A stretch of DNA of 32,000 nucleotides. Source: Phycisphaera mikurensis NBRC 102666 (GTDB taxonomy: Bacteria; Planctomycetota; Phycisphaerae; Phycisphaerales; Phycisphaeraceae). The stretch's first letter is position 1, and every line of letters starts with the position of its first letter. The translations under genes and the position numbers were made by a program. This document shows, in pieces, positions 7,802-32,000 of the stretch. The stretch is from contig NC_017080.1 of NCBI RefSeq assembly GCF_000284115.1, forward strand, positions 150,001 to 182,000, given 5' to 3'. The notes beneath the pieces were generated by a model. The model worked only from the letters and a program-made list of their open reading frames with translations, was not told the origin of the DNA and made no database searches.

Positions 7802-7846
7802 GCCCGCGGACCGTGGGCGAGAACGCGACCCGATGCCGACGGTCCG

Positions 7847-10188: not shown

Positions 10189-10195
10189 GCGGTGG

Positions 10196-10203: not shown

Positions 10204-10330
10204 CCGGAGTGAAGCCCCCTCTGGGGGAGCCGGAAGGTTGAGGAAGACGGGGGGCCGTCGGCCCCGGTGCGGGGCGGGCGCCGGCCCGCGTCAGGGGCGG
10301 GCGCCGCGACGGCGGGACTTGGAATGGGGA

Positions 10331-10585: not shown

Positions 10586-10641
10586 GGCGGGGAAGGAAGG
10601 TTGGAAGGAGGAGGAGGAAAGCCGGCAAGGGGGGGGAAGGA
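10586..10641. repeat. Polypurine/polypyrimidine tract abutting the csrA start codon (9 GGA on plus strand, 9 UCC in the csrA leader; includes a G8/C8 run)
   Basis: The plus strand reads ggcggggaaggaaggttggaaggaggaggaggaaagccggcaaggggggggaagga. GGA was counted at 10591, 10595, 10603, 10607, 10610, 10613, 10616, 10635 and 10639. Confidence 0.85.
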
Positions 10642-10702
10642 TCAGCGGGTCTGGCTGAAGGTCTCCTTGGTCCCCCGGACGCGCTCACCTGCTGGCAGAG
10701 AC

Positions 10703-11209: not shown

Positions 11210-11277
11210 GGGGTGCGTCCTGCGGGAGAGGGAGGGCGGCGCCGCTTCGGCGCGGCGCTGCGGAAGGTTTGGTGGGC

Positions 11278-13227: not shown

Positions 13228-13375
13228 GGCGGGGAGCCCGTGGGGCCCGGGCGTTCGGGCGTGGGGCAGAGCGAGAACGTCGGGTCGGGGGGGTGCGTGG
13301 CCGGTCGCGGGCCTGCTGGCTTCTTCGGAGGGTCTGCTTCTGGGGGACGCACCCGCCCGAGACCGGGAGCGGCGC

Positions 13376-15106
13376 TTAGACGAGCCTCAAGAGCTCCTGC
13401 GTCAGCTCGTCCACCGTCGAGAGGAACCGGGCGCTCGCCTGGTAGCCGCGCTGGTACTGCAGGAGCGCGAGCGCTTCCTCGTCGCTGTTGACGCCCGAGA
13501 GCGCCTGCTGCTGGGCCTCGAGCGACTCGCGGACGGTGGCGGTGGAGGAGGCGTTGTCGCGGGCGCGCGACGTGGCGGCGGCGAGCGTTTCGACCTCGTT
13601 GGTCCAGGCCTGCCGGATGGAGCGGCCGCCCAGCCGGGCGCTGCCGCCGTCGGCGAGCGCGGCCACGGCGAGGGCCCCGCGGTTGTCGCCGGGGCGGTGG
13701 TCGCGGCCGACGGCGAGGCGCGACGGGTCGCCCACCACCGCCGCGTCGACGGCGAGGTCGGTGGCGTCGGTGCCCGAGAAGAAGGCGTTGATGCCCAGCG
13801 CCGCGAGCACGCCGGAGCTGTCTTCCCCGAAGCTCACCGCGGAGCCGGGCGTGTCGCCGGCGATCGTCAGGCGGCCGTCGGGGGAGACGGTGGCGGCGAG
13901 GCCATCGACCGCGTCGAGGCTCGCCGCCAGCGTGTTGAGCGTCGTGTCGTCGCCGCCGAGCCCGTCGAGGTCGACGGCCACGGTGGTGCGGGTCCGCTGG
14001 CCCGAGGCCGCGTCGCCGACGAAGACCGCGAAGGAGCCGTGGCTCGCGGCGAAGGCGCGGTCCGCGTCGGGCAGGTTGAGCGCGAGGTCCGCGTCGGCGA
14101 CGCGGTGGATCGCGGTCCAGCTCCGCTGCGCGACCAGGCCCTGGCTCGACGCGTGGGCCCGGTTCGTCTCGAACGCGATCGCTCCGGCGACGTCGTCGAG
14201 GTTCTCAATCGAGCGGCGGAGCTCCACCGTGCGGAAGTTCTGCAGCGCCCCCAGCGTGCCGCGCTGGCTCTCGATCGGCGTGCCGTCGGCCTCGATCGCC
14301 ACGTACGACTCGACCCGCGGCGGCGCGCCGTCCACGCCGGCGACCTCGCGCTCCGCCACGGTGAGCCCGCGCGATCGGCCGTCGAGCATCAACGCCTGGC
14401 TGCCCACGTGCACGTTCAGCTTGCCGGAGGCGTCCTCGGTGGAGGTGATCGGCAGCGTCTCGGCCAGCCGCGTGAGCAGCACGCCGCGGCGATCGCGGAG
14501 CGAGGCGGCCTCTCGGGCCCGGCCACGCCCGCCCTCGGCGGTGGCGATGCGGCCGTTGAGGTCCTCGATCTCGGCGAGCACGGCGTCGGCCTCGGCGACG
14601 GAGGCCCCGAGCTGATCCAGGCTCTGGTCCTCCAGCTCGGCGTAGGCGCCGCGCAGCTCGTTGAGAAAGCCGGCCAGCCCGCGGGCCTCCTCCACCACCA
14701 GCGACCGCAGCGCCGGGTCCTCGGGCCCGGTGGACAGCTGCGACCATGCGTCGAAGTAGCGGGTCAGCCGGTCGGAGAGGCCCGTGCCCGAGAGCTCGTT
14801 CTGCAGGCCTTCCACCTGTTCGAGCAGGCCGGCCGTCAGCGCCGCGCCGCCGGCATCGGTGCCCGCGAGCCGGAGCCGGCTCTCCAGCGCCGCATCGAGG
14901 ACGCGCTCGGCTCCGGCGAAGGCCACGCCGGTTCCCAGCACGTGGTCGCGGCCGAGGGCCACGTCCCGCCCCGGCTCCAGCCGCACCGCCCGGCGGTGGT
15001 GCCCGGGCGTGTTCACGTTGGCCAGGTTCTCCCCGGTCACCTCGATCGCCCGCTGGTGGGCGAGCAGGCCGGAGCGGCCGATCTGGAGGGCGGAGGAGAG
15101 CGACAT
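13376..15106 (-). CDS. flgK: Flagellar hook-associated protein 1 (FlgK)
   Basis: 576 aa. The N-terminus is MSLSSALQIGRSGLLAHQRAIEVTGENLANVNTPGHHRR. The C-terminus is EEALALLQYQRGYQASARFLSTVDELTQELLRLV. Confidence 0.9.
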   Translation of the reverse strand: MSLSSALQIGRSGLLAHQRAIEVTGENLANVNTPGHHRRAVRLEPGRDVALGRDHVLGTGVAFAGAERVLDAALESRLRLAGTDAGGAALTAGLLEQVEGLQNELSGTGLSDRLTRYFDAWSQLSTGPEDPALRSLVVEEARGLAGFLNELRGAYAELEDQSLDQLGASVAEADAVLAEIEDLNGRIATAEGGRGRAREAASLRDRRGVLLTRLAETLPITSTEDASGKLNVHVGSQALMLDGRSRGLTVAEREVAGVDGAPPRVESYVAIEADGTPIESQRGTLGALQNFRTVELRRSIENLDDVAGAIAFETNRAHASSQGLVAQRSWTAIHRVADADLALNLPDADRAFAASHGSFAVFVGDAASGQRTRTTVAVDLDGLGGDDTTLNTLAASLDAVDGLAATVSPDGRLTIAGDTPGSAVSFGEDSSGVLAALGINAFFSGTDATDLAVDAAVVGDPSRLAVGRDHRPGDNRGALAVAALADGGSARLGGRSIRQAWTNEVETLAAATSRARDNASSTATVRESLEAQQQALSGVNSDEEALALLQYQRGYQASARFLSTVDELTQELLRLV

Positions 15107-15290
15107 CGGCAGGAGGAAGAGGGAGCAGGCGGGGAGGAAGCGGCGAGCGATCGCGAGGAAGAAATCCAGGAGGAGGAGCGGGACCGAGGCTCTGGATCGT
15201 CGCGCCCGACCCTTTCTTGAACTCCCCTCTCGCTCGCTCCTGTCGGAGCCGAGGCGACGCTGCGAGCGCCGATCCTGCTCCGCGGCGCAC

Positions 15291-15797
15291 TCACGCCACC
15301 AACGACATCCGGCTCAGCGAAAGCCGTGCCGGGGCGTGGCGGCCGCTGGCGGCGTAGCGGGCGCCGGAGCTGCGCTGCTTCATGCGCCGGACCAGCCCGT
15401 CGACGTGCGCGGCGGCGGCGGCGGCGGCCCGCGCGGCCGAGGCTGCGCGGCGGCCGTTGGCCTCGGCGGCGTCGCGGAGGGCGGCCCGCGCGTCGAGCAG
15501 GCGGCGGCGCGGGACCGGCGCGAGGCCCTCGGCGATGGCGGCGAGGCCCGCGTCTTCGGAGAGGCCCAGAGCGGCGGCCAGCGTCGCCGTCTGCGTCCGC
15601 CGCTTCCGCTCCAGGGCGACGCCTTCGGCGAGCGCCGCCGCTTCGTCGCGGTCGGCGGCCGCCATGGCGTCGGCGTCGGCGCGGCGGAGCGCCGACGTCC
15701 GCGCCTCGATCAGGTCGATCAGCCGCTCCTGCACCCGCAGCGCGGCGGCGAGGCCGGCGATCAGGTCCTCGACCTCGCGGGGCGCGAAATCGCTCAA
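15291..15797 (-). CDS. FlgN-like flagellar export chaperone (putative)
   Basis: 168-aa helical Ala/Arg/Glu-rich ORF immediately upstream of flgK, the usual flgN position. Its start overlaps the stop of the preceding ORF by 4 nt. The assignment rests on position and composition rather than a strong motif. Confidence 0.5.
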   Translation of the reverse strand: MSDFAPREVEDLIAGLAAALRVQERLIDLIEARTSALRRADADAMAAADRDEAAALAEGVALERKRRTQTATLAAALGLSEDAGLAAIAEGLAPVPRRRLLDARAALRDAAEANGRRAASAARAAAAAAAHVDGLVRRMKQRSSGARYAASGRHAPARLSLSRMSLVA

Positions 15798-18546: not shown

Positions 18547-19497
<951 letters not shown>

Positions 19498-19697
19498 GGA
19501 GGTTTCTAGCGGATGGCGCAGACGGAAGCCGCGGGCGTCCCGGCCGGGCCCAGGCACGCCGAGCGGCCGCACCGTCCGGCGGCAGCGATCCTCCCGGAGA
19601 GGCCGGCCTCTGGATCGGGGCGGCTTCCGGATCCGCGGATCGTTGCGCACTTCGCCGCCAAGAGCCGTCGGATCCGCGGGTCGGCGCACCCGAACGC

Positions 19698-21137
19698 TCA
19701 GTCCGGCCCGCGCCGGCGGGCCAGGGCCTCCGCTTCGGCCCGCGTGAGGGGCGCACGCTCCGGGCCGATCCGATGCTCCGGAGCCAGCGTGGACACCCGC
19801 GGGCGGTACTCGCCGGTCAGCCGGTCGGCGACGAGGCCCTCGGCGATGAGGTCGGCCTCGTCCCGCAGCCCCAGGTCCGGGACCGAGGCGGCGAAGCCGT
19901 CGAGCGCCCGCCGGTGCTCGGCCAGCGCAGCGGAATGCTCCGGATCGTCGGCCAGGTTCCGGAGGCAATCGGGATCGGCCCGGGCGTCGAACAGCTCCTC
20001 GGGTCGTTTGTTCACCGCCATGAAGAGCGCGGCGTCCCCGTGCAGCTCCCCCGCCGCGTGCAGGTCCCGCATCCGCTGGAGCGTCGGCTCGTGCTCCATG
20101 TACCCGTGGTGGCTCGCGTAGGGCAGCCCCGGGAATCCGTTGCGGATGTAGTGGTACCGCTTGGACCGCGCCACGCGGACGTGGTCGAAGTTCGCGTCCA
20201 TGCGGTCACGCCCGGCGAACACGAAGGCGCGGGGCTCCGCCCGCTCCTCGCCGAGGAAGACCCGCCCGTCGCCGCCCGGCGGGACCGGCACGCCCATCAG
20301 CGCGAGGATCGTCGGCGCGACGTCGACCCAGGCGACCAGGCGGTCGTCGACGGTCTCCGGCTCGATCACCCCCGGCCAGCGGACGATCAGCGGCAGGTGG
20401 ATCCCGGCGTCGTAGCACCAGCGTTTCTCGCGTGGCAGGCCGCGGCCGTGGTCGGTGAGGTAGATCACCAGCGTCTCGTCGGCGATGCCCGCGGCGTCGA
20501 GCGCGTCCAGCGCCCGGCCGATCTCCCGGTCCTGCATCAGCAGGTTGTCGTGGTAGCGGGCGACGTCGCGGCGGGTCTGGGGCGTGTCGGGCAGGTACGG
20601 CGGCACGGGGGCGGCGGCCGGGTCGTGGAGCTCGTCGGCGCCGAGGCTGGCGAGCGTGTCCGCGTAGGTCTTGCCTCCGTGGGGGTTCACGTCCCAGACG
20701 CGCGACTCGTGGGTCGCCGCGAAGTTGCGGTAGAAGAAGGCCGGCCCGGCGGGCGGGCTGCCCGCCAGCGTCTCCAGCCAGTCGTCGGTGGTGTCGGCGA
20801 AGCCGGCGGGCGGCTCGAAGTTGAAGTCGGTCTTCGTCGGCCAGGCGACGTGGATGCCGGCTTCGCGCAGCGCGTGCGTGAACAGCCGCGGCGGGTCGAG
20901 CAGTGTCGACCGCATGGCGTGCGTGCCGATCGCCCACGGGTAGCGGCCGGTGACCAGCCCGCTGCGTGAGGGCGCGCAGACCGGCGAGTGGGTGAAGGCT
21001 TGGGTGAACCGGCAGCCTCCCGAGGCGAGCCGGTCGAGGTTCGGCGTCGTCGCGTAGCCGTTGCCGTAGCAGCCGAGGTGGAGCCCGGTGTCTTCGCCGA
21101 CGAGCAGCATCACGTGCTTGGGGCAGGAGGTGGCCAT
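19698..21137 (-). CDS. Sulfatase (formylglycine-dependent arylsulfatase family)
   Basis: 479 aa from ATG 21137 (MATSCPKHVMLLVGEDTGLHLGCYGN...). The sulfatase signature is SPVCAPSRSGLVTGRY (CxPxR). No obvious signal peptide. The upstream 176 codons of the track ORF are Arg/Pro/Gly-rich shadow. Confidence 0.9.
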   Translation of the reverse strand: MATSCPKHVMLLVGEDTGLHLGCYGNGYATTPNLDRLASGGCRFTQAFTHSPVCAPSRSGLVTGRYPWAIGTHAMRSTLLDPPRLFTHALREAGIHVAWPTKTDFNFEPPAGFADTTDDWLETLAGSPPAGPAFFYRNFAATHESRVWDVNPHGGKTYADTLASLGADELHDPAAAPVPPYLPDTPQTRRDVARYHDNLLMQDREIGRALDALDAAGIADETLVIYLTDHGRGLPREKRWCYDAGIHLPLIVRWPGVIEPETVDDRLVAWVDVAPTILALMGVPVPPGGDGRVFLGEERAEPRAFVFAGRDRMDANFDHVRVARSKRYHYIRNGFPGLPYASHHGYMEHEPTLQRMRDLHAAGELHGDAALFMAVNKRPEELFDARADPDCLRNLADDPEHSAALAEHRRALDGFAASVPDLGLRDEADLIAEGLVADRLTGEYRPRVSTLAPEHRIGPERAPLTRAEAEALARRRGPD

Positions 21138-21609
21138 GAGAGCGGAGCCGCTCCGCCGGAGGCGGGGGGTGCGACGAACGTACCGGCTCCCTCCGCATCC
21201 CCAGCCCGGCCGGACCGAGGGCGGCGACGCCGCTTGCGGCGGCACCCGCGGACCGCGACTCCTGGCAGCCATCGGGGACGACGGTCCTCGGAATCGATCG
21301 CCCCCCCGGCGCTGCGTCTCGCCCGAACCGCCGCGGCGGCCTCGGGATCCCGGCGGACGGCTACCGCCTGGAACCGTCGGAGCCACCCGCAAAGAGCCCC
21401 TCGCCGGCCTCGCCCGCCTCGAAGCCCACGTGGTCGGCGCCGGCCTTGGTGAGGGCCGTGCGGAGGCCCGAGGTGCATCGCAGCAACCGCCGCACCTTCC
21501 GCGGGAGAGTTCCCGCCTCCGGGCAGGCGCGATGGAGCCATTGAACCCGAACGCAGATCGTCCACAGGTGTCTCGCCGAGCCGGGCCGCAGACCCGTAGA
21601 TTTGCCCGC

Positions 21610-24600
21610 GTGAGCGACGCCTTCTTCCAACGACCGATCCTCAACTCGCCGTACGAGCGACCCACGAAGCACTGGGAGCTGGCGGCCGACGGTCAACCGA
21701 CGCAAAAGGAACGAGACGGCCGCCGGGAGGTCCGCTTCGTCACGCCCATCCCGGCCCCCCGGAAGAAGAGCGGCCAGGAAGGCCTCGGCTTCAACGAAGC
21801 CGAGGAGCTCACCGACGGCGAGCAGCGGTACGAGAAGACCGCCGAGACGATCCGCACGGTCCGGCGCCGCGTGGACGCGTGGCGGAAGCTGCCCGAGACG
21901 CAGTGGAAAGTCACGCCCGAGACCGCCCGCCTGCTGCACCACTGGCGGCGGCCCCAGGAGCACTGGGACGGCCCCCGGCCCTTCTTCTGCCAGCGGGAAG
22001 CGGCCGAGGTCGCGATCTGGCTCACCGAGGTGGCTCCGCAGTCGGGCGTCGAGGCGAAGGCCCTGCTGGAGTTCCTGCACGACGCCAACGAGGGCGCGAA
22101 CCCCGGCCTGCCGCGCCTCGCCCTCAAGCTCGCCACCGGCGCCGGCAAGACCACCGTCATGGCGATGCTGATCGCGTGGCAGACCGTGAACGCCGCCCGT
22201 CGGCCCAGCTCCAAGAACTTCACGCGGGGCTTCCTGATCGTGACGCCGGGGCTGACCATCAAGGACCGCTTACGCGTCCTGCAGCCCAACGACCCGGACA
22301 ACTACTACGAGACCCGCGGGCTGGTCCCGCGCGACCTCCTGCCCGAGGTCCGCAAGGCCACCGTGGTCATCACCAACTACCACACCTTCCAGCTGCGCGA
22401 GACGATGGAGGTGAGCCGGGGCGGCCGGGCCCTCCTGCAGGGCCGCACCGGCGAGGAGATCTCCTCGAAGGAGACGCCCGGCCAGATGCTCCGCCGCGTG
22501 CTCGGTTCGCTGATGGGCCTGCGCGGGTTGGTCGTCATCAACGACGAGGCGCACCACTGCTACCGCGGCAAGCCCGAGGAACAGACCGAGGAGGGCAAGC
22601 TCACCGGCGACGAGCTGCAGGACGCCAAGAGCAACGACGAGGCCGCCCGCGTGTGGATCTCCGGGCTGGAGACCGTGCACGAGCACCTGAAGCTCGCGCG
22701 GATCTACGACCTCTCCGCCACGCCCTTCTTCCTGCGCGGCAGCGGCTACGCCGAGGGCACCCTGTTCCCATGGACGATGAGCGACTTCTCGCTGATGGAC
22801 GCCATCGAGTGCGGCATCGTGAAGCTGCCGCGGGTGCCCGTGGCCGACAACCTCGCCGGCGCTGAGCAGTCCGAGATGCCGAAGTTGCGGGAGTTGTGGA
22901 AGCACATCGGCAAAGCGATGCCCAAGGGCAACCGCAAGAACAGCAAGCTCGACCCCGAAGACCTCCCGCTGCTGCTGCAGACCGCGCTCCAAGCGCTCTA
23001 CGGCCACTACGAGAAGACCCACGCCAAGTGGGAGCAGGCCGCCAGGCGGCGCGGCAAGCGCAGGTGGATCCCCCCCTGCTTCATCGTCGTGTGCAACAAC
23101 ACCGCGACCAGCAAGCTGGTGCACGACTGGATCGCCGGCTGGACCGCCACCGACGAGGACGGCAACGAAGCCCCCCGCTTCGGCCGGCTGGAGCTGTTCC
23201 GCAACACGGACGGGTACGGCCAGCCCCTCGCCCGCCCGCGCACGCTGCTCATCGACTCCGCCCAGCTGGAGAGCGGCGAAGCCATCGACAAGGATTTCCG
23301 CGAGGCCGCGGCCGACGAGATCGATCGGTTCCGCCAGGCGGAGCTCGACCGCGGCCGGTCCGCCGCCGAGGTGGAGACCTTCTCCGACGCCGACCTGCTC
23401 CGCGAGGTGATGAACACCGTGGGCCAGGAGGGCGGGCTGGGCGAGCAGGTCCGCTGCGTGGTCTCGGTCGCGATGCTGACCGAGGGCTGGGACGCCAACA
23501 ACGTCACCCACGTGCTCGGCGTGCGGGCCTTCGGCACCCAGCTGCTCTGCGAGCAGGTGATGGGCCGGGCCCTGCGCCGCCAGAGCTACCAGCTCGGCGA
23601 CGACGGGCTCTTCGGCGTGGAGTACGCCGACGTGCTGGGCATCCCCTTCGACTTCACCGCCGAGCCGGTCGTCGCCCCGGTGCAGGACCTGCCGCAGCGG
23701 ACGCTGGTCCGGGCCGTCAAGCCCGAGCGTGATCCGCTCGCCATCCGCTTCCCCCACGTTCGCGGCTACCGCACCGACTTCCCCGACGAGACGCTCAAGG
23801 TCAGCTTCCGCCCCGAAGATTCGGTTCTCAAGCTCACCCCCGAGCTGGTCGGGCCGACCATCACGCAGAACGCCGGCATCATCGGCGAGGCCGCGCACCT
23901 GGACCTCTCCCACACCGCCGACACGCGGAAGGGCACCATCCTGATGCACCTCGCGAGCCACCTGGTGACCACGAAGCTCAAGGGCGAGGGAGGCCGGCCG
24001 AACTTCCACCTGCTGCCGCGGGCGAAGGCGATCTGCAGCGATTGGATGGACGGCTACCTGAAGTGCGTCGGTGGCACGCACCCGGCGCAGCTGCTCTACA
24101 AGCCGCTGGCGGAGGACGCCTGCCAGAAGATTTTCAACGCCATCACCCGCGGCGCCGGCGAGGCCCCCGTCCTCGCCGTGCTGGATCCCTACAACCCCGA
24201 GGGCTCGACCGCGTCGGTGCACTTCCAGACGTCGAAGCAGGATTTGTGGGACACCGCCGGCTTCGGCGGGGTCGAGGCGCCGGAGGAGTCACCCGAATCT
24301 CCCTCCCCCGCCTGCCGCAACCACGTCAGCCACGTCGTGCTCGACTCCGGCTGGGAGGCCGAGTTCTGCCGCGTCGCCGAGACCCACCCCCGCGTCCTCC
24401 GCTACGTGAAGAACCACGGCCTGGGGCTGGAGATCCCGTACCGGTTCCAGGGGCAACCCCGCCGCTACCGCCCCGACTTCGTCGTCGTCCTCAACGACGG
24501 GAATGGGGCCGAAGACCCCCTCCACTTGCTCGTCGAGGTCAAGGGCTACCGCACCGAGGACGCCAAGGAGAAGCGCCAGGCCGCCGAGACCTTCTGGGTC

Positions 24601-24768
24601 CCGGGCGTCAACCGCCTCGGCGGCTTCGGCCGCTGGGCCTTCGCCGAGTTCGGCAACGTCTTCGCCATGCAGGAGGACTTCGCCGCGGAGGTGGAGAAGA
24701 ACTTTGAAGCGATGGTGGAGGGGGCGTGCGGTCAACCCGCCCACCTAGGAGGCCCCGCCCATGCCTGA
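21610..24768 (+). CDS. res: Type III-like restriction enzyme Res subunit (SF2 helicase + C-terminal PD-(D/E)xK nuclease)
   Basis: Motif I is LKLATGAGKTTVMAM and motif II is VVINDEAHHCY. Later motifs are YDLSATPFF and MLTEGWDANNVTHVLGVRAFGTQLLCEQVMGRALRR. The C-terminal nuclease-like region reads VVLDSGWEAEF...RPDFVVVL...LLVEVKG. I place the start at GTG 21610 (VSDAFFQRPILNSPYERPTKHWEL), which matches the N-terminus I recall for this family. ATG 21532 is an alternative. The track start at 21088 overlaps the sulfatase start and is shadow-like. Confidence 0.85.
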   Translation: MSDAFFQRPILNSPYERPTKHWELAADGQPTQKERDGRREVRFVTPIPAPRKKSGQEGLGFNEAEELTDGEQRYEKTAETIRTVRRRVDAWRKLPETQWKVTPETARLLHHWRRPQEHWDGPRPFFCQREAAEVAIWLTEVAPQSGVEAKALLEFLHDANEGANPGLPRLALKLATGAGKTTVMAMLIAWQTVNAARRPSSKNFTRGFLIVTPGLTIKDRLRVLQPNDPDNYYETRGLVPRDLLPEVRKATVVITNYHTFQLRETMEVSRGGRALLQGRTGEEISSKETPGQMLRRVLGSLMGLRGLVVINDEAHHCYRGKPEEQTEEGKLTGDELQDAKSNDEAARVWISGLETVHEHLKLARIYDLSATPFFLRGSGYAEGTLFPWTMSDFSLMDAIECGIVKLPRVPVADNLAGAEQSEMPKLRELWKHIGKAMPKGNRKNSKLDPEDLPLLLQTALQALYGHYEKTHAKWEQAARRRGKRRWIPPCFIVVCNNTATSKLVHDWIAGWTATDEDGNEAPRFGRLELFRNTDGYGQPLARPRTLLIDSAQLESGEAIDKDFREAAADEIDRFRQAELDRGRSAAEVETFSDADLLREVMNTVGQEGGLGEQVRCVVSVAMLTEGWDANNVTHVLGVRAFGTQLLCEQVMGRALRRQSYQLGDDGLFGVEYADVLGIPFDFTAEPVVAPVQDLPQRTLVRAVKPERDPLAIRFPHVRGYRTDFPDETLKVSFRPEDSVLKLTPELVGPTITQNAGIIGEAAHLDLSHTADTRKGTILMHLASHLVTTKLKGEGGRPNFHLLPRAKAICSDWMDGYLKCVGGTHPAQLLYKPLAEDACQKIFNAITRGAGEAPVLAVLDPYNPEGSTASVHFQTSKQDLWDTAGFGGVEAPEESPESPSPACRNHVSHVVLDSGWEAEFCRVAETHPRVLRYVKNHGLGLEIPYRFQGQPRRYRPDFVVVLNDGNGAEDPLHLLVEVKGYRTEDAKEKRQAAETFWVPGVNRLGGFGRWAFAEFGNVFAMQEDFAAEVEKNFEAMVEGACGQPAHLGGPAHA

Positions 24769-26464
24769 ACATGAATCCGATCCCGTCGTGGTCGAACTTC
24801 TCGCTGCCGTCGAGCACGAAGATCTCGATTTCAAGAAGGCCGAGCGCAGCTTCTCGAAACAGGACCTGCAGGACTACGCCTCCGGGCTCTCCAACATGGA
24901 GGGCGGCCGGCTGATCCTCGGGATCACCGGGCGACGGCCACGGCGTGTCGCTGGCTCCAGCGCCTTCGAGCGGGACTTGGAGCAGCAAGCCCGCGACCTC
25001 GAGAACGCGATCCACGTCTCGATTCGACCCGAAGAGAGATGTCACTTCGGCAAGCGGGTCGTGATTTTCCACATCGCCAAACACCGACTCGGCGTTCCAA
25101 CCTCCAACGGTCGCGGCGGAGCGAAGATGCGTCGGAACGAGGAACTGATCGACCTCACCGAGGAGCGGCGACACGAGATCTGGAATGAGAACTCTGAAGA
25201 CTTCACGGCGCGAACCTGCGCCGGAGCCACGCTGGAGGACCTTGATCCCGAAAGCATCAAGGTCTTTCGTGAAAAGTGGATGGACCGGCTCTCGGGCTCC
25301 AGCCAAAAACGAGATCGCCGCGCGGCGGAGCGTCGAGCGGGTCTTTCAGCCGGCGACTTTCTCGCCGAAGTGGACCTGCTGAGGCCGGAGGGGCCGACCT
25401 ATGCGGCGATGATCCTCTTGGCCACGAGAGCTGCCTTGACCCGCCACCTTGGCAACGCCGAGATCATCTTCGAGTACCGCAGCGGCAGGGCCGCTGGTCC
25501 CGCTGCGGACCGGTTGAACCTGCGGGAGGGCCTGATCGGCTGTTTCGACGAACTCTGGGAGCGGATCAACCTGCGAAACGAACTACAGAGCGTCCAGGAA
25601 GGCCTCTTCCGCGAGCCCATTCCTACGTTTCAGGAAGAACCGATCCGCGAGGTCATGCTCAACGCCGTCGCCCATCGCGACTACACCCACCAAGGCAGCG
25701 TGATGATCAGGCAGTACCCGCGCGAACTGCGGTGTCAGAGCCCCGGCGGCCTTCCACGCGGCGTCACCCTCGCCAACATCTCGGACAGTTCCGTCCCACG
25801 GAACCGCCGGCTGATGGAGGCGCTCCAGGGCTGCGGACTCGTGGAGCGATCCGGCCAGGGCATCGACTTGATGTTCGCATCGTCGGTTCTGGACACCAAG
25901 CCGCTGCCCGATTTTGCCGGCACGGATGCGGACACCGTCGTGGTCACCCTCGGCGGCTCCATCACCTCGCCCGCGTCGATCCTGGCGCTACGCAAGATCG
26001 CCGAGGAACACGGGAGCAACCTCGGGACCGAGGACTTCCGCACGCTCCACCACATCGGCCGCCAAGAACCCGTGCCCGCCGACCTCCAGGTCAGCGCGAG
26101 GCACCTGTTGGACCTCGGGATCGTCGAGTCGCTCGGAGCGGGGAAAGGCCGGCGATTCATCCTCGGCCGGAACTACCGAAAGCTCACCGGCGACCTTGAG
26201 AAGTACACCCAGGAGCGAGGGCTGGACCGGGAGCAGAACGTCCAGCTCCTCTTAAAGCACCTACAGCACTGCGGGAGCGAAGGAGCACAGATCAGCGACC
26301 TTCAGAAGGTTATCCCGGCGCTGAGCCGCGGTCAGATCAAGGCAAGGCTGGCCACGCTCGCCGAGCGTCACCTGGCGCGGCTGGGAACCTCCGACGGGCG
26401 GCTCAGGCGTGGACACCACGCCCGCTGGTTCGTCGTGGAAGACGGTGTGGACGCGGATGATTGA
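24761..26464 (+). CDS. AlbA_2 (Schlafen-like) / HATPase_c_4 domain protein with C-terminal wHTH-like region (putative ATP-binding DNA-binding regulator)
   Basis: 567 aa. The N-terminus (EHEDLDFKKAERSFSKQDLQDYASGLSNMEGGRLILGI) is AlbA_2-like. The central region (MLNAVAHRDYTHQGSVMIRQYP...PRNRRLMEALQGCGLVERSGQGIDLMF) is HATPase_c_4-like. GGAGG at 24748-24752 lies 8 nt before the ATG. The ATG overlaps the res stop (ATGCCTGA). Confidence 0.8.
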   Translation: MPEHESDPVVVELLAAVEHEDLDFKKAERSFSKQDLQDYASGLSNMEGGRLILGITGRRPRRVAGSSAFERDLEQQARDLENAIHVSIRPEERCHFGKRVVIFHIAKHRLGVPTSNGRGGAKMRRNEELIDLTEERRHEIWNENSEDFTARTCAGATLEDLDPESIKVFREKWMDRLSGSSQKRDRRAAERRAGLSAGDFLAEVDLLRPEGPTYAAMILLATRAALTRHLGNAEIIFEYRSGRAAGPAADRLNLREGLIGCFDELWERINLRNELQSVQEGLFREPIPTFQEEPIREVMLNAVAHRDYTHQGSVMIRQYPRELRCQSPGGLPRGVTLANISDSSVPRNRRLMEALQGCGLVERSGQGIDLMFASSVLDTKPLPDFAGTDADTVVVTLGGSITSPASILALRKIAEEHGSNLGTEDFRTLHHIGRQEPVPADLQVSARHLLDLGIVESLGAGKGRRFILGRNYRKLTGDLEKYTQERGLDREQNVQLLLKHLQHCGSEGAQISDLQKVIPALSRGQIKARLATLAERHLARLGTSDGRLRRGHHARWFVVEDGVDADD

Positions 26465-26489
26465 ATGGAGTTTTTCTTCCCGCGACATG

Positions 26490-26596
26490 TCATTGAAGCG
26501 TCCTTCATTGACAGAAAAACCTCGCCAACAGCCTCCTGAGGGCGATTTCAATGGTGGATCCAACGACGCCACCACTCATTGACCCACCATTGACCC
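26490..26596 (+). promoter_or_regulatory. Array of CATTGA(C) repeats plus a 10-bp inverted repeat upstream of mod (candidate operator/promoter region)
   Basis: CATTGA occurs at 26491, 26506, 26577 and 26588. The last two are CATTGACCC copies 11 bp apart. TCAATGGTGG (26548-26557) is the exact reverse complement of CCACCATTGA (26584-26593). TTGACA is at 26508-26513. The spacer is locally AT-rich. Function is unproven. Confidence 0.5.
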
Positions 26597-26608
26597 CGGA
26601 CCCCGACC

Positions 26609-29578
26609 ATGGCCCGCAGAAAGAAGCCCAGCAGCCCCAAGCCCGTCGTCGCGCACCGCCACACGGACGCGACGCGGCGGAACATCCCCACGGCGGAGAT
26701 GGAGCCGGTGATGGTGCGGGAGGAGGCCGCACCGAAGGACGTGAAGTACGCCCGGAATCAGCCCGGCGAGGAGGTGCGGGAGGCGATCGAGGCGCGGGAG
26801 CCGGGGCTGGACCCGCAGCTGGTGTGGCGGGGCAAGGACACGCGGCCGTTCTCGGAGCTGGTCGTCAAGGCCCCGCCGCTGTTCATCCAGGAGAAGGTGC
26901 ACCCGCGGGTGCTGGTGGAGGACCTGCGGCGGCAGACCGAGCAGGCGCGGATGGCGAAGGAGATCGCCGGCGGCGGCAGGACCGTCGATGAACAGATCGA
27001 CCTGTTCGCCGACTTCAACGGGCTGCCCGAGGACCCCGACGCCCGGACCGACTTCTACCACCACGACCAGCACTGGTCCAACCGGATGATCCTCGGCGAC
27101 TCGCTGCAGGTGATGGCCTCGCTCGCGGAGCGGGAGGGCCTCCGCGGGAAGGTGCAGGCGATCTACTTCGACCCGCCCTACGGGATCAAGTTCAACAGCA
27201 ACTTCCAGTGGAGCACCACCAGCCGCGACGTGAAGGACGGCAACGCGGAGCACATCACCCGCGACCCCGAGCAGGTCAAGGCCTTCCGCGACACGTGGGA
27301 GGACGGGATCCACAGCTACCTCACCTACCTGCGCGACCGGCTGACCGCCGCGCGGGACCTGCTGACCGAGAGCGGGAGCATCTTCGTGCAGATCGGGGAT
27401 GAGAACGTGCACCGGGTGCGGTGCCTCATGGACGACATCTTTGGCGAGAGCAACTTCCTAGCGTCCATCGGATTCACAAAAACTTCCGTTGGTCTTCAGG
27501 CATCATCTCGAGTCGCCCTAATCTTTGATTCCATTCTTTGGTATTCGAAGGATGAAGGCAAGGGTAAGTTTCGACGTCTGCTAGATCACAAAGGCGAAGG
27601 CTTCGACTCGCAGTATTCGCTTTATCTTGAAGATGATGGGAGCGCACGTGGTCTAACTCCGGAGGAGAAAGACAGCTTCCCCGATAGCATTGACGTCAAT
27701 CGAGTTCTCCAAGCAGATAACCTGACGAAGCCTGGCCCTGGCGCGAAGTATCAAGTTCATTTTCGCGGACAAACTTTTGATCCGGGGAAGAGATGGTGGG
27801 GAACAACCGAAGATAACATGAACCGCCTTTTGAAAGCGGGGCGAGCAGTTATATCGGGAAAGTCTCTTCGATACGCTCGTTTCTTCTCCGATAGCAGGTA
27901 CGGGCAACTAAGCAATATCTGGACTGGGTATCTTGGTCAGAGTTCGCCCACATACGTGGTACAGACCAACACAGATGTAGTTGCCCGTTGCCTCCTCATG
28001 GCCACCGACCCCGGCGACCTCGTGCTCGACCCGACCTGCGGGTCGGGCACCACGGCCACCGTCGCCGAGCAGTGGGGCCGCCGGTGGATCACGATCGACA
28101 CCAGCCGCGTGGCGCTCGCGCTGGCGCGGGCGAGGGTCATGGGGGCCCGCTACCCGTACTACCTGCTGGCCGACTCGCCCGAGGGGGCGAGAAAGGAAGC
28201 CGAGGTCACCCGCTCGGAGGTCCGCTCCGCCCCGGCGGGCGGGCACCGCGACGACCTGAAGCGCGGCTTCGTCTACGAGCGGGTGCCGCACGTGACGCTC
28301 AAGTCGATCGCGAACAACAGCGAGATCGACGTGATCTGGGAGAACTTCCAGGAGACGCTGGAGCCGCTGCGGGAACAGCTCAACGAGGCGCTCGGGACCT
28401 CCTGGGAGGAGTGGGAGATCCCACGGACCTGGGAAGAAGCCGTTGCCCGGGTGCCACGCCCTCCAGGGGGTGGTGAAACCGGTTCCGCGGAAGAAGACCC
28501 ACCCCCTGGAGGGCGTGGCACCCAGGAGGCGGAGGAGCTGCACGCGTCGTGGTGGGAGGCGCGGATCGCGCGGCAGAGAGAGATCGACGCCTCCATCGCC
28601 GCCAAGGCCGACTCCGAGTTCCTCTACGACAAGCCCTATGAGGACCGAAAGAAGGTTCGCGTGGCCGGGCCCTTCACCGTGGAGAGCCTCTCACCGCACC
28701 GGATGCTCGGCACCGACGAGAACGGCGGCCCGGTGGACTACGCCCCGGATGCCGCCTCCGCGGGATCCGCCGCCGTCGCGGCGGGGGACTTCAGTTCGAT
28801 GATCCTCTCGAACCTCCGCTCCGCGGGGGTGCAGCAGGCGGACAAGGGGGACCGCATCGAGTTCGACTCGCTGGAGCCGTGGCCGGGGAAGATGATCGCC
28901 GCCGAGGGCCGGTACACCCGCGACGGGAAGACCCGCCGGCTCGCGGTGCTCATCGGCCCGGAGTTCGGTGCCCTCCGCCAGAACGACCTGACCGTCGCCG
29001 CCGTCGAGGCCGCCGAGAGCGGCTTCGACGGCCTGCTCGCCTGCGGCTTCGCCTACGAGGCCAACACCAGCGACCTCACGCGCGTCGGCCGCATCGACGT
29101 CATCAAGGCCCGCATGAACGCGGACCTGCACATGGCGGACCTGAAGAACACCGGCGCCGGCAACCTGTTCGTCGTCTTCGGCGAGCCCGACATCGAGGTG
29201 CTGCCCCCGGAGGACGCGCCCGACGGTGCCGACCCCGCCGACTACGACGCCATCCGCGTCCGCGTCCGCGGGGTGGACGTGTTCGATCCGAAAACAGGAA
29301 AAGTCCGCAGCGACTCGGCGGACGGCATCGCCTGCTGGTTCGTCGACACCGACTACAACCAGGAGAGCTTCTTCGTGCGGCAGGCGTACTTCCTGGGCGC
29401 CGGCGACCCGTACAAGAGTCTGAAGACCACGCTGAAGGCCGAGATCGACCGCGACGCGTGGGAGACGCTGAACTCCGACGTGAGCCGGGCGTTCCCCAAG
29501 CCGGAGGGCGGCCGCATCGCCGTGAAGGTCATCAACCACCTCGGCGACGAGGCGCTGAAGGTGTTTCGGGTGGGGTGA
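26609..29578 (+). CDS. mod: Site-specific DNA methyltransferase, beta-class (Type III Mod-like), probably N6-adenine
   Basis: 989 aa. Motif IV IYFDPPYG (DPPY at 27170-27181) precedes motif I LVLDPTCGSGTTATVAEQWGRRWITID (about 28020-28100), which is the beta permutation. The family-typical N-terminus reads NIPTAEME...LVWRGKD. The ~340-aa C-terminal extension ends KVINHLGDEALKVFRVG. Confidence 0.9.
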   Translation: MARRKKPSSPKPVVAHRHTDATRRNIPTAEMEPVMVREEAAPKDVKYARNQPGEEVREAIEAREPGLDPQLVWRGKDTRPFSELVVKAPPLFIQEKVHPRVLVEDLRRQTEQARMAKEIAGGGRTVDEQIDLFADFNGLPEDPDARTDFYHHDQHWSNRMILGDSLQVMASLAEREGLRGKVQAIYFDPPYGIKFNSNFQWSTTSRDVKDGNAEHITRDPEQVKAFRDTWEDGIHSYLTYLRDRLTAARDLLTESGSIFVQIGDENVHRVRCLMDDIFGESNFLASIGFTKTSVGLQASSRVALIFDSILWYSKDEGKGKFRRLLDHKGEGFDSQYSLYLEDDGSARGLTPEEKDSFPDSIDVNRVLQADNLTKPGPGAKYQVHFRGQTFDPGKRWWGTTEDNMNRLLKAGRAVISGKSLRYARFFSDSRYGQLSNIWTGYLGQSSPTYVVQTNTDVVARCLLMATDPGDLVLDPTCGSGTTATVAEQWGRRWITIDTSRVALALARARVMGARYPYYLLADSPEGARKEAEVTRSEVRSAPAGGHRDDLKRGFVYERVPHVTLKSIANNSEIDVIWENFQETLEPLREQLNEALGTSWEEWEIPRTWEEAVARVPRPPGGGETGSAEEDPPPGGRGTQEAEELHASWWEARIARQREIDASIAAKADSEFLYDKPYEDRKKVRVAGPFTVESLSPHRMLGTDENGGPVDYAPDAASAGSAAVAAGDFSSMILSNLRSAGVQQADKGDRIEFDSLEPWPGKMIAAEGRYTRDGKTRRLAVLIGPEFGALRQNDLTVAAVEAAESGFDGLLACGFAYEANTSDLTRVGRIDVIKARMNADLHMADLKNTGAGNLFVVFGEPDIEVLPPEDAPDGADPADYDAIRVRVRGVDVFDPKTGKVRSDSADGIACWFVDTDYNQESFFVRQAYFLGAGDPYKSLKTTLKAEIDRDAWETLNSDVSRAFPKPEGGRIAVKVINHLGDEALKVFRVG
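28449..28523. repeat. Perfect 25-bp inverted repeat with 25-nt spacer (75 bp total) inside the mod coding sequence
   Basis: Arm 1 (28449-28473) is gggtgccacgccctccagggggtgg. Arm 2 (28499-28523) is ccaccccctggagggcgtggcaccc, verified base by base as the exact reverse complement. The loop tgaaaccggttccgcggaagaagac contains the palindromes aaccggtt and ccgcgg. Confidence 0.95.
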
Positions 29579-29581
29579 GGG

Positions 29582-29657
29582 ACCTGTCGCAACCTGCCCA
29601 TCGTTTTCCCGGATCTCGGATAGTCGTGTACAGGTGTGTACAGGTGTTGATAACCTG
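29582..29657 (+). promoter_or_regulatory. Phased CAGGT/ACCTG pentamer array including a tandem 10-bp direct repeat GTGTACAGGT x2 (29626-29645), upstream of the ATPase gene
   Basis: ACCTG is at 29582 and 29592, 10 bp apart. CAGGT is at 29631 and 29641, 10 bp apart and inside GTGTACAGGTGTGTACAGGTGT. ACCTG is at 29653, giving CAGGTgttgataACCTG. Each repeat unit contains the palindrome TGTACA. Function is unproven. Confidence 0.5.
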
Positions 29658-29662
29658 GTGCG

Positions 29663-30859
29663 GTGGACGCCGCCTCCAACCCTTTCGAGCCCGGTGCGGG
29701 CAACCAGCCGCCCGAGCTGGCAGGCCGGGACGAAGTGCGTGAGAAGGTGCGGATCGCGCTGGAGCGAGCCAAGCGTGGCCGCTCCGCCCGCGGGCTGATC
29801 CTGCCGGGCCTGCGTGGCGTGGGCAAGACGGTGCTGCTGCGGCAGATCGGCCGCGACGCGGCGGCCGCGGGCGGGGTGGTGGTGACGCTGGAGGCGCCGG
29901 AGCAGCGTTCCCTGCCGGCACTGCTGATCCCGCAGCTGCGGGTGGCGCTGCTGCAGCTCTCCCGCGTGGCCGCCGCGAAGGAACACGCGGAGCGGGCGAT
30001 GCGGGTGCTGACCGGCTTCACCCGGGCCCTGCGGGTCAAGTACCAGGACATCGAGGTCAGCCTCTCGGGCGAGGCCGAGGAGGGCTTCGGAGACAACGGT
30101 GACCTGGAGCAGGACCTGCAGACGTTGCTCGTGCAGGTGGGCGCCGCGGCCGCCGCGGCGAGGAAGCCGGTGCTGATCCTGATCGACGAGCTGCAGTACG
30201 TGAAGGTGACCGAGCTGGGCGCCCTGCTGTCCGCCAGCCACCGGCTCAGCCAGGAAGCGCTGCCGGTGATGCTGATCGGAGCGGGCCTGCCCCAGTTGCT
30301 CGCCCGCATGGCGAAGGCGAAGTCCTACGCGGAGCGGCTCTTCGAGTACCCGCGGGTCGATGCGCTGCCCGAGGAGGCCGCCCGCCGGGCGCTGGTGAAG
30401 CCCGCCGCGGACGAGGGAGCCGCCTTCGAGGAGGAAGCCCTCGCCGAGATCCTCCGCCAGACCCGCGGCTACCCGTACTTCCTCCAAGAGTGGGGCAAGC
30501 ACGCCTGGGACTTCGCCGAGCGGTCGCCGATCACGCTCGACGACGTGGTGGCCGCTTCGGCCGCGGCCGTCTTGGCGCTGGACGAGGGCTTCTTCCGCGT
30601 GCGGCTCGACCGCGTGACGCCGATGGAGCGGCGCTACCTCCGGGCCATGGCCGAGCTTGGAGAGGGGCCGCACCGCTCCGGCGACGTGGCCGAGCAGATG
30701 AACCGCTCGCTGGAATCGCTGGGTTCCACCCGAGACAAACTCATCCGCAAGGGGATGATCTGGAGCCCGGCGTACGCGGAGATCGCGTTCACGGTGCCGA
30801 TGTTCGACCGCTACCTGAAGCGGGTGATCCCGGACGCGGAGGCGGACGAAGAGCCGTGA
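29663..30859 (+). CDS. AAA/ORC-Cdc6-like ATPase with C-terminal wHTH-like region
   Basis: 398 aa with a GTG start. The N-terminus is NPFEPGAGNQPPELAGRDEV, Walker A is LPGLRGVGKTVLL and Walker B is PVLILIDELQYV. The C-terminal region reads TPMERRYLRAMAELGEGPHRSGDVAEQM...TRDKLIRKGMIWSP. Confidence 0.8.
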   Translation: MDAASNPFEPGAGNQPPELAGRDEVREKVRIALERAKRGRSARGLILPGLRGVGKTVLLRQIGRDAAAAGGVVVTLEAPEQRSLPALLIPQLRVALLQLSRVAAAKEHAERAMRVLTGFTRALRVKYQDIEVSLSGEAEEGFGDNGDLEQDLQTLLVQVGAAAAAARKPVLILIDELQYVKVTELGALLSASHRLSQEALPVMLIGAGLPQLLARMAKAKSYAERLFEYPRVDALPEEAARRALVKPAADEGAAFEEEALAEILRQTRGYPYFLQEWGKHAWDFAERSPITLDDVVAASAAAVLALDEGFFRVRLDRVTPMERRYLRAMAELGEGPHRSGDVAEQMNRSLESLGSTRDKLIRKGMIWSPAYAEIAFTVPMFDRYLKRVIPDAEADEEP

Positions 30860-32000
30860 TCTTCCTCCTCGCCGACACGCTAACCCGAGCGCTCGCGAAG
30901 CTCACGAACCAGGAGCAGAAGCGGGTGAAGCTCACGTGCTTCCAGCTTCAAGTGGACCCCACCGGACACGGACTCCAGAAGCACCGAATCGACCATGGGA
31001 AGGACCCCAACTTCTGGTCGGCGCGTGTCAGCCGCGACCTCCGGCTGATCCTTCACCAGACGGGCAGCAGCCTCCTCGCGTGCTACGCCGGGCACCACGA
31101 CGACGCGTACGCGTGGGCGCAGCGCCGGCGGCTGGAGACGCACCCGCGGACGGGGGCGGCGCAGCTGGTGGAGGTGCGCGAAGCGGTGGAGGAAGCAAAT
31201 CCGCGGACCGTGGCCGAAAACGAGGAAACACCGCCACGGTCCGCGGATTCGGCGCCGGGAGTGCCGATCTTCCGGGGGGAGAGCGACGAGCGGCTGCTGT
31301 CCTTTGGCGTGCCGGAGGACTGGCTGCCCGACGTGAAGGCGGTGGTGGACGAGGACGCGCTGCTGGCCCTGGCCGACCGGCTGCCGGCGGAGGCGGCGGA
31401 GGCGCTCCTGTCGCTGGCGGTGGGCGAGGAGCCGGAAGTCACGCCGGCGACCGAGCCCGCTACGCCGGAGGAGGCCCTCGCCCACCCCGACGCTCGGCGC
31501 CGCTTCCACCTGATCGAGAACGATGCGGAGCTGGAGCGGGCCCTGGAGGCACCCGCCGACGGCTGGGCGGTGTTCCTGCACCCCAGCCAGCGGAGAATCG
31601 TCGACGCGACGCCGGCGGGGCCGACGCGGGTGGCCGGCTCGGCGGGCACGGGCAAGACGGTGGTGGCGCTGCACCGGGCGGCGCGGGTCCTGGCGCAGCG
31701 GCCCGAGGCCCGGGTGTTGCTCACAACCTTCGACCCGGTGCTGGCCCGGCAGCTGCGGCGGAAGATGAGCCTGCTGCTGGACGAGGACGCGAGGAAGCGG
31801 CTGGTGGTCAGGTCGCTCGACGACTTCGCGCTCGATCACCACGAGGCGGCAGTGGGCAGCGTGACCGTCGCCACCCGGGGCATGGTCCGCCGGGCGGTGG
31901 AGGACGCGCACGCGGGAGCTGCCCACGCGTTCCCGTGGCTCTCGCCGGAGCTGCTCGAGAGCGAGTGGCGGGACGTGGTGGACGCGTGGCAGATTGAGTC
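30856..32000 (+). CDS. UvrD-type (SF1) helicase with RelE/ParE-like N-terminal domain; 3' end beyond window
   Basis: Absent from the track because it is open at the window end. My translation from GTG 30856 is stop-free to 32000. It reads VIFLLADTLTRALAKLTNQEQKRVKLTCFQLQVDPTGHGLQKHRIDHGKDPNFWSARVSRDLRLILHQTGSSLLACYAGHHDDAYAWAQRRRLETHPRTGAAQLVEV... then an acidic/Pro linker, then FLHPSQRRIVDATPAGPTRVAGSAGTGKTVVALHRAARVLA (Walker A). The GTG overlaps the ATPase TGA (GTGA). Confidence 0.75.
   Translation, partial: MIFLLADTLTRALAKLTNQEQKRVKLTCFQLQVDPTGHGLQKHRIDHGKDPNFWSARVSRDLRLILHQTGSSLLACYAGHHDDAYAWAQRRRLETHPRTGAAQLVEVREAVEEANPRTVAENEETPPRSADSAPGVPIFRGESDERLLSFGVPEDWLPDVKAVVDEDALLALADRLPAEAAEALLSLAVGEEPEVTPATEPATPEEALAHPDARRRFHLIENDAELERALEAPADGWAVFLHPSQRRIVDATPAGPTRVAGSAGTGKTVVALHRAARVLAQRPEARVLLTTFDPVLARQLRRKMSLLLDEDARKRLVVRSLDDFALDHHEAAVGSVTVATRGMVRRAVEDAHAGAAHAFPWLSPELLESEWRDVVDAWQIE

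Follow-up and report, generated by a model that had tools for sequence, protein, structure and literature searches.

Organization of the locus

The DNA analyzed here is a 32,000-nucleotide stretch of Phycisphaera mikurensis NBRC 102666 (contig NC_017080.1, positions 150,001 to 182,000 of the forward strand), referred to below as the window and numbered from its first letter. From position 21610 onward it carries five genes on the forward strand. The first (21610-24768) encodes a type III-like restriction endonuclease of the BPTD_3080 family (Res) and is followed by a gene for a 567-amino acid (aa) protein with AlbA_2 (Schlafen-like) and HATPase_c_4 domains (24761-26464), by a gene for a 989-aa type III N6/N4 DNA methyltransferase (Mod; 26609-29578), by an upstream element (29579-29662) and the GTG-initiated gene of a 398-aa AAA+ ATPase (29663-30859), and finally by the gene of a UvrD-type helicase, which starts at 30856 and is still open at the window end (32000). 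A sequence-only reading of this DNA had proposed that the ATPase and the helicase constitute a dedicated two-gene defense module beside a restriction-modification (R-M) system. Our analysis points to a different arrangement. We think it likely that the region from 21.6 to 32.0 kb and beyond is one horizontally acquired BPTD_3080-type operon, with Res, Mod and the helicase as its framework and with the AlbA_2 and ATPase genes as cargo embedded in two slots, one between Res and Mod and the other between Mod and the helicase.

With the NCBIfam equivalog model NF046055 ("BPTD_3080 family restriction endonuclease"), Res reaches 1203.5 bits (cut-off 800), the match spanning profile positions 1-969 of 970. 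It combines a superfamily 2 (SF2) motor (Pfam ResIII) with a C-terminal PD-(D/E)XK-like motif, YRPDFVVVL...LLVEVKG, that was read from the translation. Mod is matched at 1223.7 bits by the full-length type III model of PADLOC (MTase_III, PDLC03632) and also by Pfam N6_N4_Mtase. The remainder of the helicase gene was taken from another assembly of Phycisphaera mikurensis (GCA_014207395.1, contig JACHEL010000005.1), where the full gene occupies 11194-13305 and encodes 703 aa. Its GTG start at 30856 lies within the GTGA that also holds the ATPase stop codon, as had been noted from the letters, and we retain this start because residue 1 aligns with Met1 of the homologs. Directly past the helicase on that contig lies ruvB, on the opposite strand, with recA about 7 kb off. 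The G+C content of the island is 0.57-0.72 over most of its length, compared with 0.73-0.78 in the 8 kb immediately upstream, and it is this lower G+C that leads us to regard the island as horizontally acquired.

Res, Mod and the helicase form the framework of the operon

To define the partners of the helicase, we searched by tblastn with five window proteins around its homologs in 80 loci, the best-scoring of 381 confirmed matches, each taken with flanks of 7 kb; fractions derived from this sample are approximate. The loci come from many bacterial phyla, and all of them match helicase residues 1-700 at about 50% identity. Mod lies upstream on the same strand in 63 of the 80, most of the others having too little upstream DNA, and Res does so in 32, a number held down by the length of the 7-kb flank; co-linear Res and Mod were found in 32 loci. 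The AAA_16 ATPase, by comparison, is found upstream on the same strand in 4 of the 80. Mod and the helicase are inherited together, their pairwise identities being correlated across the 36 complete loci (Mantel r = 0.77, 0/2000 permutations). A bare trio of Res, Mod and helicase, with junctions that overlap or abut and with insertion sequence (IS) elements on its flanks, is present on the RefSeq plasmid p1NCPPB4222 of Pseudomonas avellanae (18967-27027 of the record), in which the helicase is annotated "3'-5' exonuclease". Plasmid-borne Res proteins at least 50% identical to that of the window are likewise accompanied by the helicase, the exceptions being systems that a transposon has destroyed, and no conserved gene was found downstream of the helicase. 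Given the linkage to Mod and Res, the co-variation, the bare plasmid trio and the lack of anything conserved downstream, we conclude that the helicase is the last gene of a three-gene framework, and that the R-M system is part of the same unit rather than the mere neighbor for which it had been taken.

The identity of the third framework gene varies between subclades. In a distant BPTD_3080 system on plasmid pAQ5 of Picosynechococcus sp. PCC 7002 (6989-15591), whose Res is 44% identical, the gene after Mod encodes a 624-aa hypothetical protein unrelated to the helicase, so that a diverged helicase can be ruled out there. A UPF0175 and DUF3368 pair lies between Res and Mod in the same system.

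Among established systems, the framework most resembles type III R-M of the EcoP15I type, with which it shares a Res made of SF2 ResIII and PD-(D/E)XK-like parts and an N6/N4 Mod. It differs in its res-then-mod gene order, in the 989-aa length of its Mod, in the third gene for a RelE-fold and UvrD helicase that marks this subclade, and in its two variable slots. A literature search, outside which most subscription-journal papers lay, returned no paper for "BPTD_3080" and no description of a Res-Mod-helicase trio.

Two slots hold diverse cargo

Mod and the helicase are 3 nt to 6.8 kb apart: 14 loci have a distance of no more than 124 nt, and 49 have one above 250 nt. The Mod-helicase gap is thus occupied in 49 of 63 loci, by inserts of 0.3-6.8 kb with mostly co-directional open reading frames (ORFs), and the Res-Mod gap is occupied in 14 of 32. 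In all, roughly three-quarters of the sampled loci carry cargo, recurrent cassettes with no Pfam match included. By Pfam, the contents of the Mod-helicase slot are diverse and mostly of defense type, which agrees with the defense context that had been surmised for this locus from its R-M genes. They include AAA and Peptidase_S8 pairs (with the AAA member present in 7 loci and the subtilase in 5), SIR2_2 with HerA/DUF87, HamA with a DEAD-box helicase (Hachiman-like), a Piwi (Argonaute) protein, reverse transcriptases (RVT_1), AAA_15/AAA_21 ATPases, GmrSD_N with HNH, and HTH_17 with PIN. In one Treponemataceae locus (L056, 1754-6886), a single 1710-aa ORF, AEP-TOTE primase-like and reverse transcriptase in one, fills the entire slot.

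Several recurrent cargo families of the Mod-helicase slot have no Pfam match, and their embedding makes them candidates for defense functions. They include a set of proteins of about 254, 180 and 140 aa in 4-5 loci and a pair of 128 and 423 aa in 2 loci. These cassettes are located at L003 4174-5847, L009 5317-6984, L015 1198-2871, L016 2303-3417, L076 5282-6979, L065 1621-3296 and L078 373-2044. The cargo of the Res-Mod slot in the window, the AlbA_2/HATPase_c_4 gene, gives weak PADLOC matches to pAgo-associated proteins, and among the loci with both Res and Mod a homolog occupies the same slot in one (L051).

The framework is therefore kept while diverse genes, often of known defense families, come to lie between its members. 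Such embedding in carrier systems has been described for Hma (bioRxiv 10.1101/2024.01.29.577857) and for TgvAB within a type I R-M system of Vibrio cholerae (PMC11411939), and we group PrrC in type Ic R-M with these precedents. The likeness to Hma and other embedding carriers lies in a methylation-based, multi-gene framework whose slots receive diverse, mostly co-directional defense genes, and it extends to the cargo families themselves, with GmrSD-like proteins, ABC/OLD ATPases, PIN proteins and reverse transcriptases being shared. The extent of embedding can be compared as well, 62.7% of Hma systems holding embedded genes (bioRxiv 10.1101/2024.01.29.577857) as against 49 of 63 loci here. Nevertheless, the present system is not Hma, which consists of a Snf2 and NOV_C helicase (HmaA), a DUF1156 methyltransferase (HmaB) and a DUF499 ATPase (HmaC) (bioRxiv 10.1101/2024.01.29.577857); these are other protein families, and none of the five window proteins has a PADLOC match to Hma. 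Type III R-M was not among the carriers analyzed in that study (bioRxiv 10.1101/2024.01.29.577857). Embedding carriers as such are already known; the carrier described here, its RelE-fold helicase and the ATPase family have no description in the literature that we could search, and a prior description elsewhere is possible.

A possible trace of how cargo enters is visible in seven loci (L034, L110, L148, L007, L082, L117 and L147), in which the cargo has a truncated second copy of the helicase 5' end on its upstream side and the intact helicase on its downstream side. The truncated copies encode between aa 1-23 (the least) and aa 2-74 (the most). In the three least-diverged cases, namely L034 (2173-2447 versus 6941-7215, 99.6% identical), L110 (3263-3448 versus 4936-5121, 97%) and L148 (5681-5900 versus 7238-7457, 93%), the breakpoints cluster at helicase codons ~69-74, and the duplicated segment of L034 takes in 60 bp before the helicase start. 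Duplicates of this kind look like scars left when cassettes were inserted through recombination at the 5' end of the helicase gene, and the window has no such fragment.

The helicase carries an N-terminal domain of the RelE fold

Within the window the helicase gene encodes an N-terminal domain (30856-31185), a disordered linker, a helical middle domain (~31276-31560) and a superfamily 1 (SF1) core that begins at ~31573. The full protein matches Pfam UvrD-helicase (2.4e-14), UvrD_C (5.7e-15) and UvrD_C_2 (2.2e-8), the first of these starting at aa 242, and motifs I-VI can all be read: AGSAGTGKT (Walker A, 31633-31659), DEAQD, GDLNQRIF, NYRTSHQI, HRAKGLEF and YVACTRAR. Extending the protein past position 32000, as the sequence-only reading had advised, yielded these UvrD domains and, over all 703 aa, no nuclease domain. 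Scores with the NCBIfam models for UvrD, PcrA, Rep and HelR fall far under their cut-offs. The Prokaryotic Genome Annotation Pipeline (PGAP) names the homologs either "3'-5' exonuclease" or "UvrD-helicase domain-containing protein".

The part of the helicase inside the window (aa 1-381) was modeled with AlphaFold2 (AF2) at a predicted local distance difference test score (pLDDT) of 82. The N-domain (aa 1-110; pLDDT ~82-97) has a beta-alpha-alpha-beta-beta-beta-beta core, and its top Foldseek matches in the Protein Data Bank (PDB) are RelE (3bpq, target template modeling (TM) score 0.76), YoeB, YafQ, ParE2, HigB and the RelE domain of Cami1. The RelE-family matches have a probability of about 1.0 and target TM scores mostly of 0.57-0.76 over ~85-90 columns. 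The domain thus has the microbial RNase (RelE/ParE) fold in the AF2 model and the Foldseek comparison alike. At the level of sequence the relationship is marginal. Pfam returns nothing at E ≤ 10 for the N-domain alone or for the middle domain alone, a profile of 40 N-domain sequences searched against the PDB finds YoeB as its best, weak match (E = 0.54), hhalign with YoeB gives a probability of 70.8%, and no significant match to a curated toxin family was obtained. The RelE/ParE resemblance that had been read from the residue pattern is accordingly right at the level of the modeled fold and marginal at that of sequence. Many of the homologs are annotated "RelE" by the Joint Genome Institute (JGI). 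The acidic, proline-rich linker that had been recognized between this domain and the UvrD core is also borne out, residues 112-119 and 125-131 (within aa ~111-140) forming the sole segment with pLDDT below 50.

Arg65 and His83 are catalytic residues of YoeB. In the profile alignment they correspond to two invariant residues of the helicase family, R63 and H81, which lie in the beta-sheet core. Among the candidates scored, 3577 proteins belong to the family at E ≤ 1e-3, with identities of ~50% over the whole query for the best of them, and among full-length members the N-domain is found only at the N terminus of helicases of ~690-700 aa; the shorter matches among 1721 cluster representatives resemble fragments rather than free toxins. 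The domain also differs from the RelE/YoeB/YafQ/HigB/ParE superfamily, whose fold it shares, in having no Pfam toxin match and no antitoxin gene. None was found beside the helicase in minimal trios, where Mod and the helicase overlap or are separated by 3-21 nt and leave no room for one. Cami1, in which a RelE domain is joined to a CARF sensor, shows that a fused RelE domain can function within a larger sensor protein. Shorter relatives of the helicase core (query aa ~210-700, 35-38% identity) that have no RelE-fold N-domain occur on plasmids of Thermus, Meiothermus, Escherichia coli and Klebsiella.

The ATPase is a solitary ORC/Cdc6-like protein

Pfam assigns the ATPase to AAA_16 (E = 1.7e-15; 58 bits, cut-off 32.6), and its Pfam matches are limited to AAA_16/AAA_22. 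Walker A (GLRGVGKT, aa 49-56, 29807-29830), Walker B (LILIDELQ, aa 171-178, 30173-30196) and many further residues are invariant across the family, among them R225, which we picked by eye as a candidate arginine finger. An AF2 model built from 120 homologs (pLDDT 88.7) consists of an AAA+ base, a lid and a C-terminal winged helix (aa ~320-376, ~30620-30790), and Foldseek matches it over nearly its full length to RuvB, archaeal Cdc6/Orc1, origin recognition complex (ORC) subunits and Pyrococcus PABY2304 (entries 2qby, 2v1u, 1fnn and 2qen among them). The open reading frame, the Walker motifs, the winged-helix tail and the ORC/Cdc6 likeness that had been called from the translation are thus upheld by Pfam, AF2 and Foldseek together. 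With ORC/Cdc6 initiators and PABY2304-type proteins (PF01637) the ATPase shares the AAA+ base, the lid, the winged helix and a helical insertion after beta-2; it is, however, bacterial, solitary and patchily distributed on chromosomes and plasmids, and the resemblance is one of fold, the orc1/cdc6 model TIGR02928 giving 18.3 bits against a cut-off of 181.3.

The same protein had also been described as a STAND-type sensor. Pfam and the AF2 model reveal neither an effector domain nor sensor repeats in its 398 aa, and for this reason the ORC/Cdc6-like label stands and the STAND sensor label falls. Membership in the STAND NTPases (Avs-like) was rejected for want of anything beyond the AAA+ base, lid and winged helix, all nSTAND Pfam scores being below their cut-offs (e.g. 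23 bits against 34).

Across genomes the ATPase is independent of the helicase. Its family has at least 8000 members, all 8000 scored candidates being significant, with a typical length of ~396 aa and a best identity of ~60%. A metagenome scan provided 80 ATPase loci, of which the 63 with at least 400 bp downstream were judged; the helicase was nearby in 7, Mod in 5, and no helicase in 56. Clustering of all flanking ORFs found no recurrent neighbor other than helicase and Mod. All three homologs examined on long contigs were solitary in unrelated neighborhoods, as were both inspected examples from the 97 plasmids on which the family occurs, and a single phage record carries it. In the eight loci with both genes, ATPase and helicase identities are only weakly correlated (r = 0.34, 255/5000 permutations), and the helicase relationships do not follow the split of the ATPases into two clades.

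A conserved AT-rich element of ~75 bp lies before almost all of the ATPase genes, whether these are solitary or embedded. In an alignment of 75 sequences from diverse sources (A4), the consensus reads AnTTTGAnnnAnATTAGnnAnTTTATnnnnnTnTTGTAAAnTnnnTAAnnTCnnTATAA and, beyond a short spacer, ATGGAyCC. Of the 75 sequences, 49 have a -10-like hexamer that ends 6-9 nt ahead of the start codon; none has a Shine-Dalgarno-like motif there, and the upstream element of the window likewise lacks one. The proximity of the -10-like box to the start and the missing Shine-Dalgarno motif suggest that the cassette may have a self-contained promoter and a leaderless transcript. The window copy is a G+C-shifted version of the element, with GTGTACAGGT twice in tandem (29626-29645), each copy containing the self-complementary TGTACA, and a -10-like GATAAC (29649-29654) that ends 8 nt before the GTG, both at the corresponding positions. 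The repeat structure upstream of the ATPase, to which the sequence-only reading had drawn attention, is therefore real, but it belongs to the ATPase cassette and not to a pair of genes, since the element precedes solitary and embedded copies alike. Some members have a clear palindrome centered near -38; over the whole set, 23% of sequences match in at least 8 of 10 pairs, as do 6.7% of shuffles, with a mode at -38. We do not claim a universal palindromic operator from a signal that is only modestly above shuffles. Conservation of non-coding DNA this broad is unusual.

Scans of the ATPase and the helicase with PADLOC, NCBIfam and Pfam gave generic matches only, with weak ones to mad8, PDC-S01 and GajB, and neither PADLOC and NCBIfam nor the searchable papers held a named system to match, as had been suspected from the outset. 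The resemblance to Gabija lies in an ATPase gene followed by a gene for an SF1 UvrD-like helicase and in partial PADLOC matches to GajB, the best at 60 bits. The two systems differ in that the pair here is unconserved, the helicase being linked instead to Res and Mod and bearing an N-domain of the RelE fold. Gabija was rejected, in keeping with the earlier judgment, because the ATPase is AAA_16/ORC-like, has no AAA_15, AAA_21 or TOPRIM domain and gives no PADLOC GajA match at E ≤ 1. The helicase was not taken for GajB either, its matches being partial and generic to the SF1 core and its conserved upstream partner being a type III methyltransferase.

Alternative explanations

The alternative that fares best, although we consider it unlikely, is that the ATPase cassette is a selfish or plasmid-maintenance gene of the ORC/Cdc6 type with its own AT-rich binding region, settled in permissive slots and without a role in defense. 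The ORC/Cdc6/RuvB-like fold, an AT-rich and repeat-bearing upstream region that recalls initiator-plus-origin layouts, the presence of the family on many plasmids and its scattered, unconserved contexts would all fit such a gene. Yet neither the flank clustering nor the two inspected plasmids revealed transposase, integrase or replication genes traveling with the ATPase, which is found as a single gene in the chromosomes of many phyla and is essentially absent from phages, and the same slot in other loci holds recognizable defense systems.

Somewhat less probable still is a regulatory role, in which the ATPase would act, like C proteins or BrxR-type controllers, as an optional transcriptional regulator of the operon that binds the TGTACA repeats and sets the expression of the helicase. 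Its winged helix would suit such a protein, as would the conserved upstream element, whose core resembles a palindrome in some of the members, and the place of the gene in the window, directly ahead of the helicase and in translational coupling with it. Most members of the family, however, are solitary and have no conserved downstream gene that could serve as the target, and most systems do without the ATPase. A repressor would not need a full AAA+ motor equipped with a sensor-2-like motif and a candidate arginine finger (R225), and the excess of palindromes over shuffles is modest.

We regard as very improbable the proposal from which this study started, that ATPase as sensor or switch and RelE-helicase as effector make up a coupled two-gene defense or abortive-infection module next to the R-M system. 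It was prompted by the GTGA overlap, and two of our results could be cited for it: the ATPase lies directly upstream of the helicase in seven loci (L037, L059, L060, L067, L124, L140 and L148), and the helicase is, with Mod, the sole recurrent neighbor family of the ATPase. A stoichiometric, conserved pair is nonetheless hard to reconcile with an ATPase that is missing from 76 of 80 helicase loci and a helicase that is missing from 56 of 63 ATPase loci; the two genes are not conserved neighbors elsewhere, which is what the sequence-only reading had itself named as grounds for giving the module up. The helicase co-varies with Mod and not with the ATPase, and the ATPase brings its own promoter-like element wherever it occurs. 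Even the overlap is unconserved. The two genes are about 5-65 nt apart in L037, L059, L060, L067 and L148, an extra gene separates them in L117, and their order is reversed in L147, where the helicase comes first. Start/stop overlaps of 4 nt are common in operons, and at the other slot of the window the Res stop codon (24768) overlaps the start of the AlbA_2 gene (24761) by 8 nt, although the latter is clearly cargo. For this reason we read the GTGA junction as tight operon packing and not as a sign of partnership.

That the helicase is a general DNA-repair or recombination enzyme lying near an R-M system by chance can be set aside almost entirely: ruvB and recA are close by in Phycisphaera mikurensis and the PGAP labels of the homologs would suit a repair enzyme, but the linkage to Mod and Res is kept across many phyla and on IS-flanked plasmid copies, nothing downstream is conserved, the NCBIfam repair-helicase models score far under their cut-offs, and a patchy spread across phyla at ~50% identity is typical of mobile genes.

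Proposed roles and implications

The operon reading that we favor, with Res, Mod and helicase as framework and the ATPase as cargo, has points against it that should be weighed together. The functions discussed in this report are predictions from sequence and models, and we infer a role for the helicase in restriction from its conserved linkage to Res and Mod. Catalytic competence of the N-domain would follow from two aligned residues. The fractions on which the framework is built come, as noted, from the top-scoring part of the matches and short flanks. The ATPase is enriched at the R-M-helicase system, being there in 7 of the 63 closest metagenomic relatives and in 5 of 81 systems, and because it adjoins the helicase in most loci that contain both, some functional affinity between the two is possible. 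Finally, a sigma-70 scan of 29400-31000 found no match, so that the promoter reading rests on the family alignment and not on the window.

With these points in mind, a working model can be outlined, in which the particular biochemical roles given to the RelE domain and to the ATPase are tentative and each have, in our estimation, somewhat less than an even chance of being correct. Res and Mod would restrict unmethylated DNA in a type III-like manner, and the helicase may assist by acting on DNA ends or intermediates that arise from restriction, by analogy with the SF1 helicase GajB. One attractive possibility for the RelE-fold domain is that it provides a latent RNase as an abortive, translation-level back-up; alternatively, it may be a nucleic acid-binding module. 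The ATPase would work alone, probably as an ATP-dependent, oligomerizing DNA-binding protein that binds its own upstream element and may thereby autoregulate, and its GTGA junction with the helicase would be a by-product of the tight packing of the slot. Its embedding in a slot that carries mostly defense-type genes makes the ATPase, by context, a candidate for single-gene defense.

A more far-reaching version of this model, which we put forward as a speculation with the odds against it, is that the trio represents an undescribed, widespread three-component restriction system and two-slot carrier, that cassettes enter it at the helicase 5' end, that the RelE-fold domain is an RNA-targeting second line of defense, and that the ATPase, with its leaderless promoter, is a new single-gene defense.

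These results have consequences for how the locus is approached. If the ATPase and the helicase were cloned as a pair, the helicase would lose the partners to which it really belongs. A type III-like R-M subclade found in many phyla and on plasmids joins the short list of carriers made up of Hma, BREX, DISARM and type I R-M. An SF1 helicase with a RelE/YoeB fold and residues at two catalytic positions raises the question of whether restriction could couple DNA cleavage to an RNA-level response. The ORC-like ATPases, for their part, form a very large, highly conserved and solitary candidate family with a putative promoter element that is conserved across diverse sources.

Inverted repeats in linker-coding segments

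The helicase linker contains a perfect inverted repeat on the forward strand (31198-31249) with 17-nt arms and an 18-nt loop, and a second inverted repeat lies within Mod (28446-28526), with 28-nt arms that are 96% complementary. Both are in frame and lie within low-complexity segments that encode linkers. An Rfam scan of 20-32 kb returned sub-threshold miRNA-like matches only, which we attribute to these in-frame palindromes in Mod and the helicase linker. The GATCCGCGGACCGTGG-like motif of the helicase-linker repeat occurs in 6 copies in the window with at most 3 mismatches, as against 0.37 expected, and the repeat looks like a small dispersed palindromic element inserted in frame. The six copies include another inverted pair at 7801/7836.

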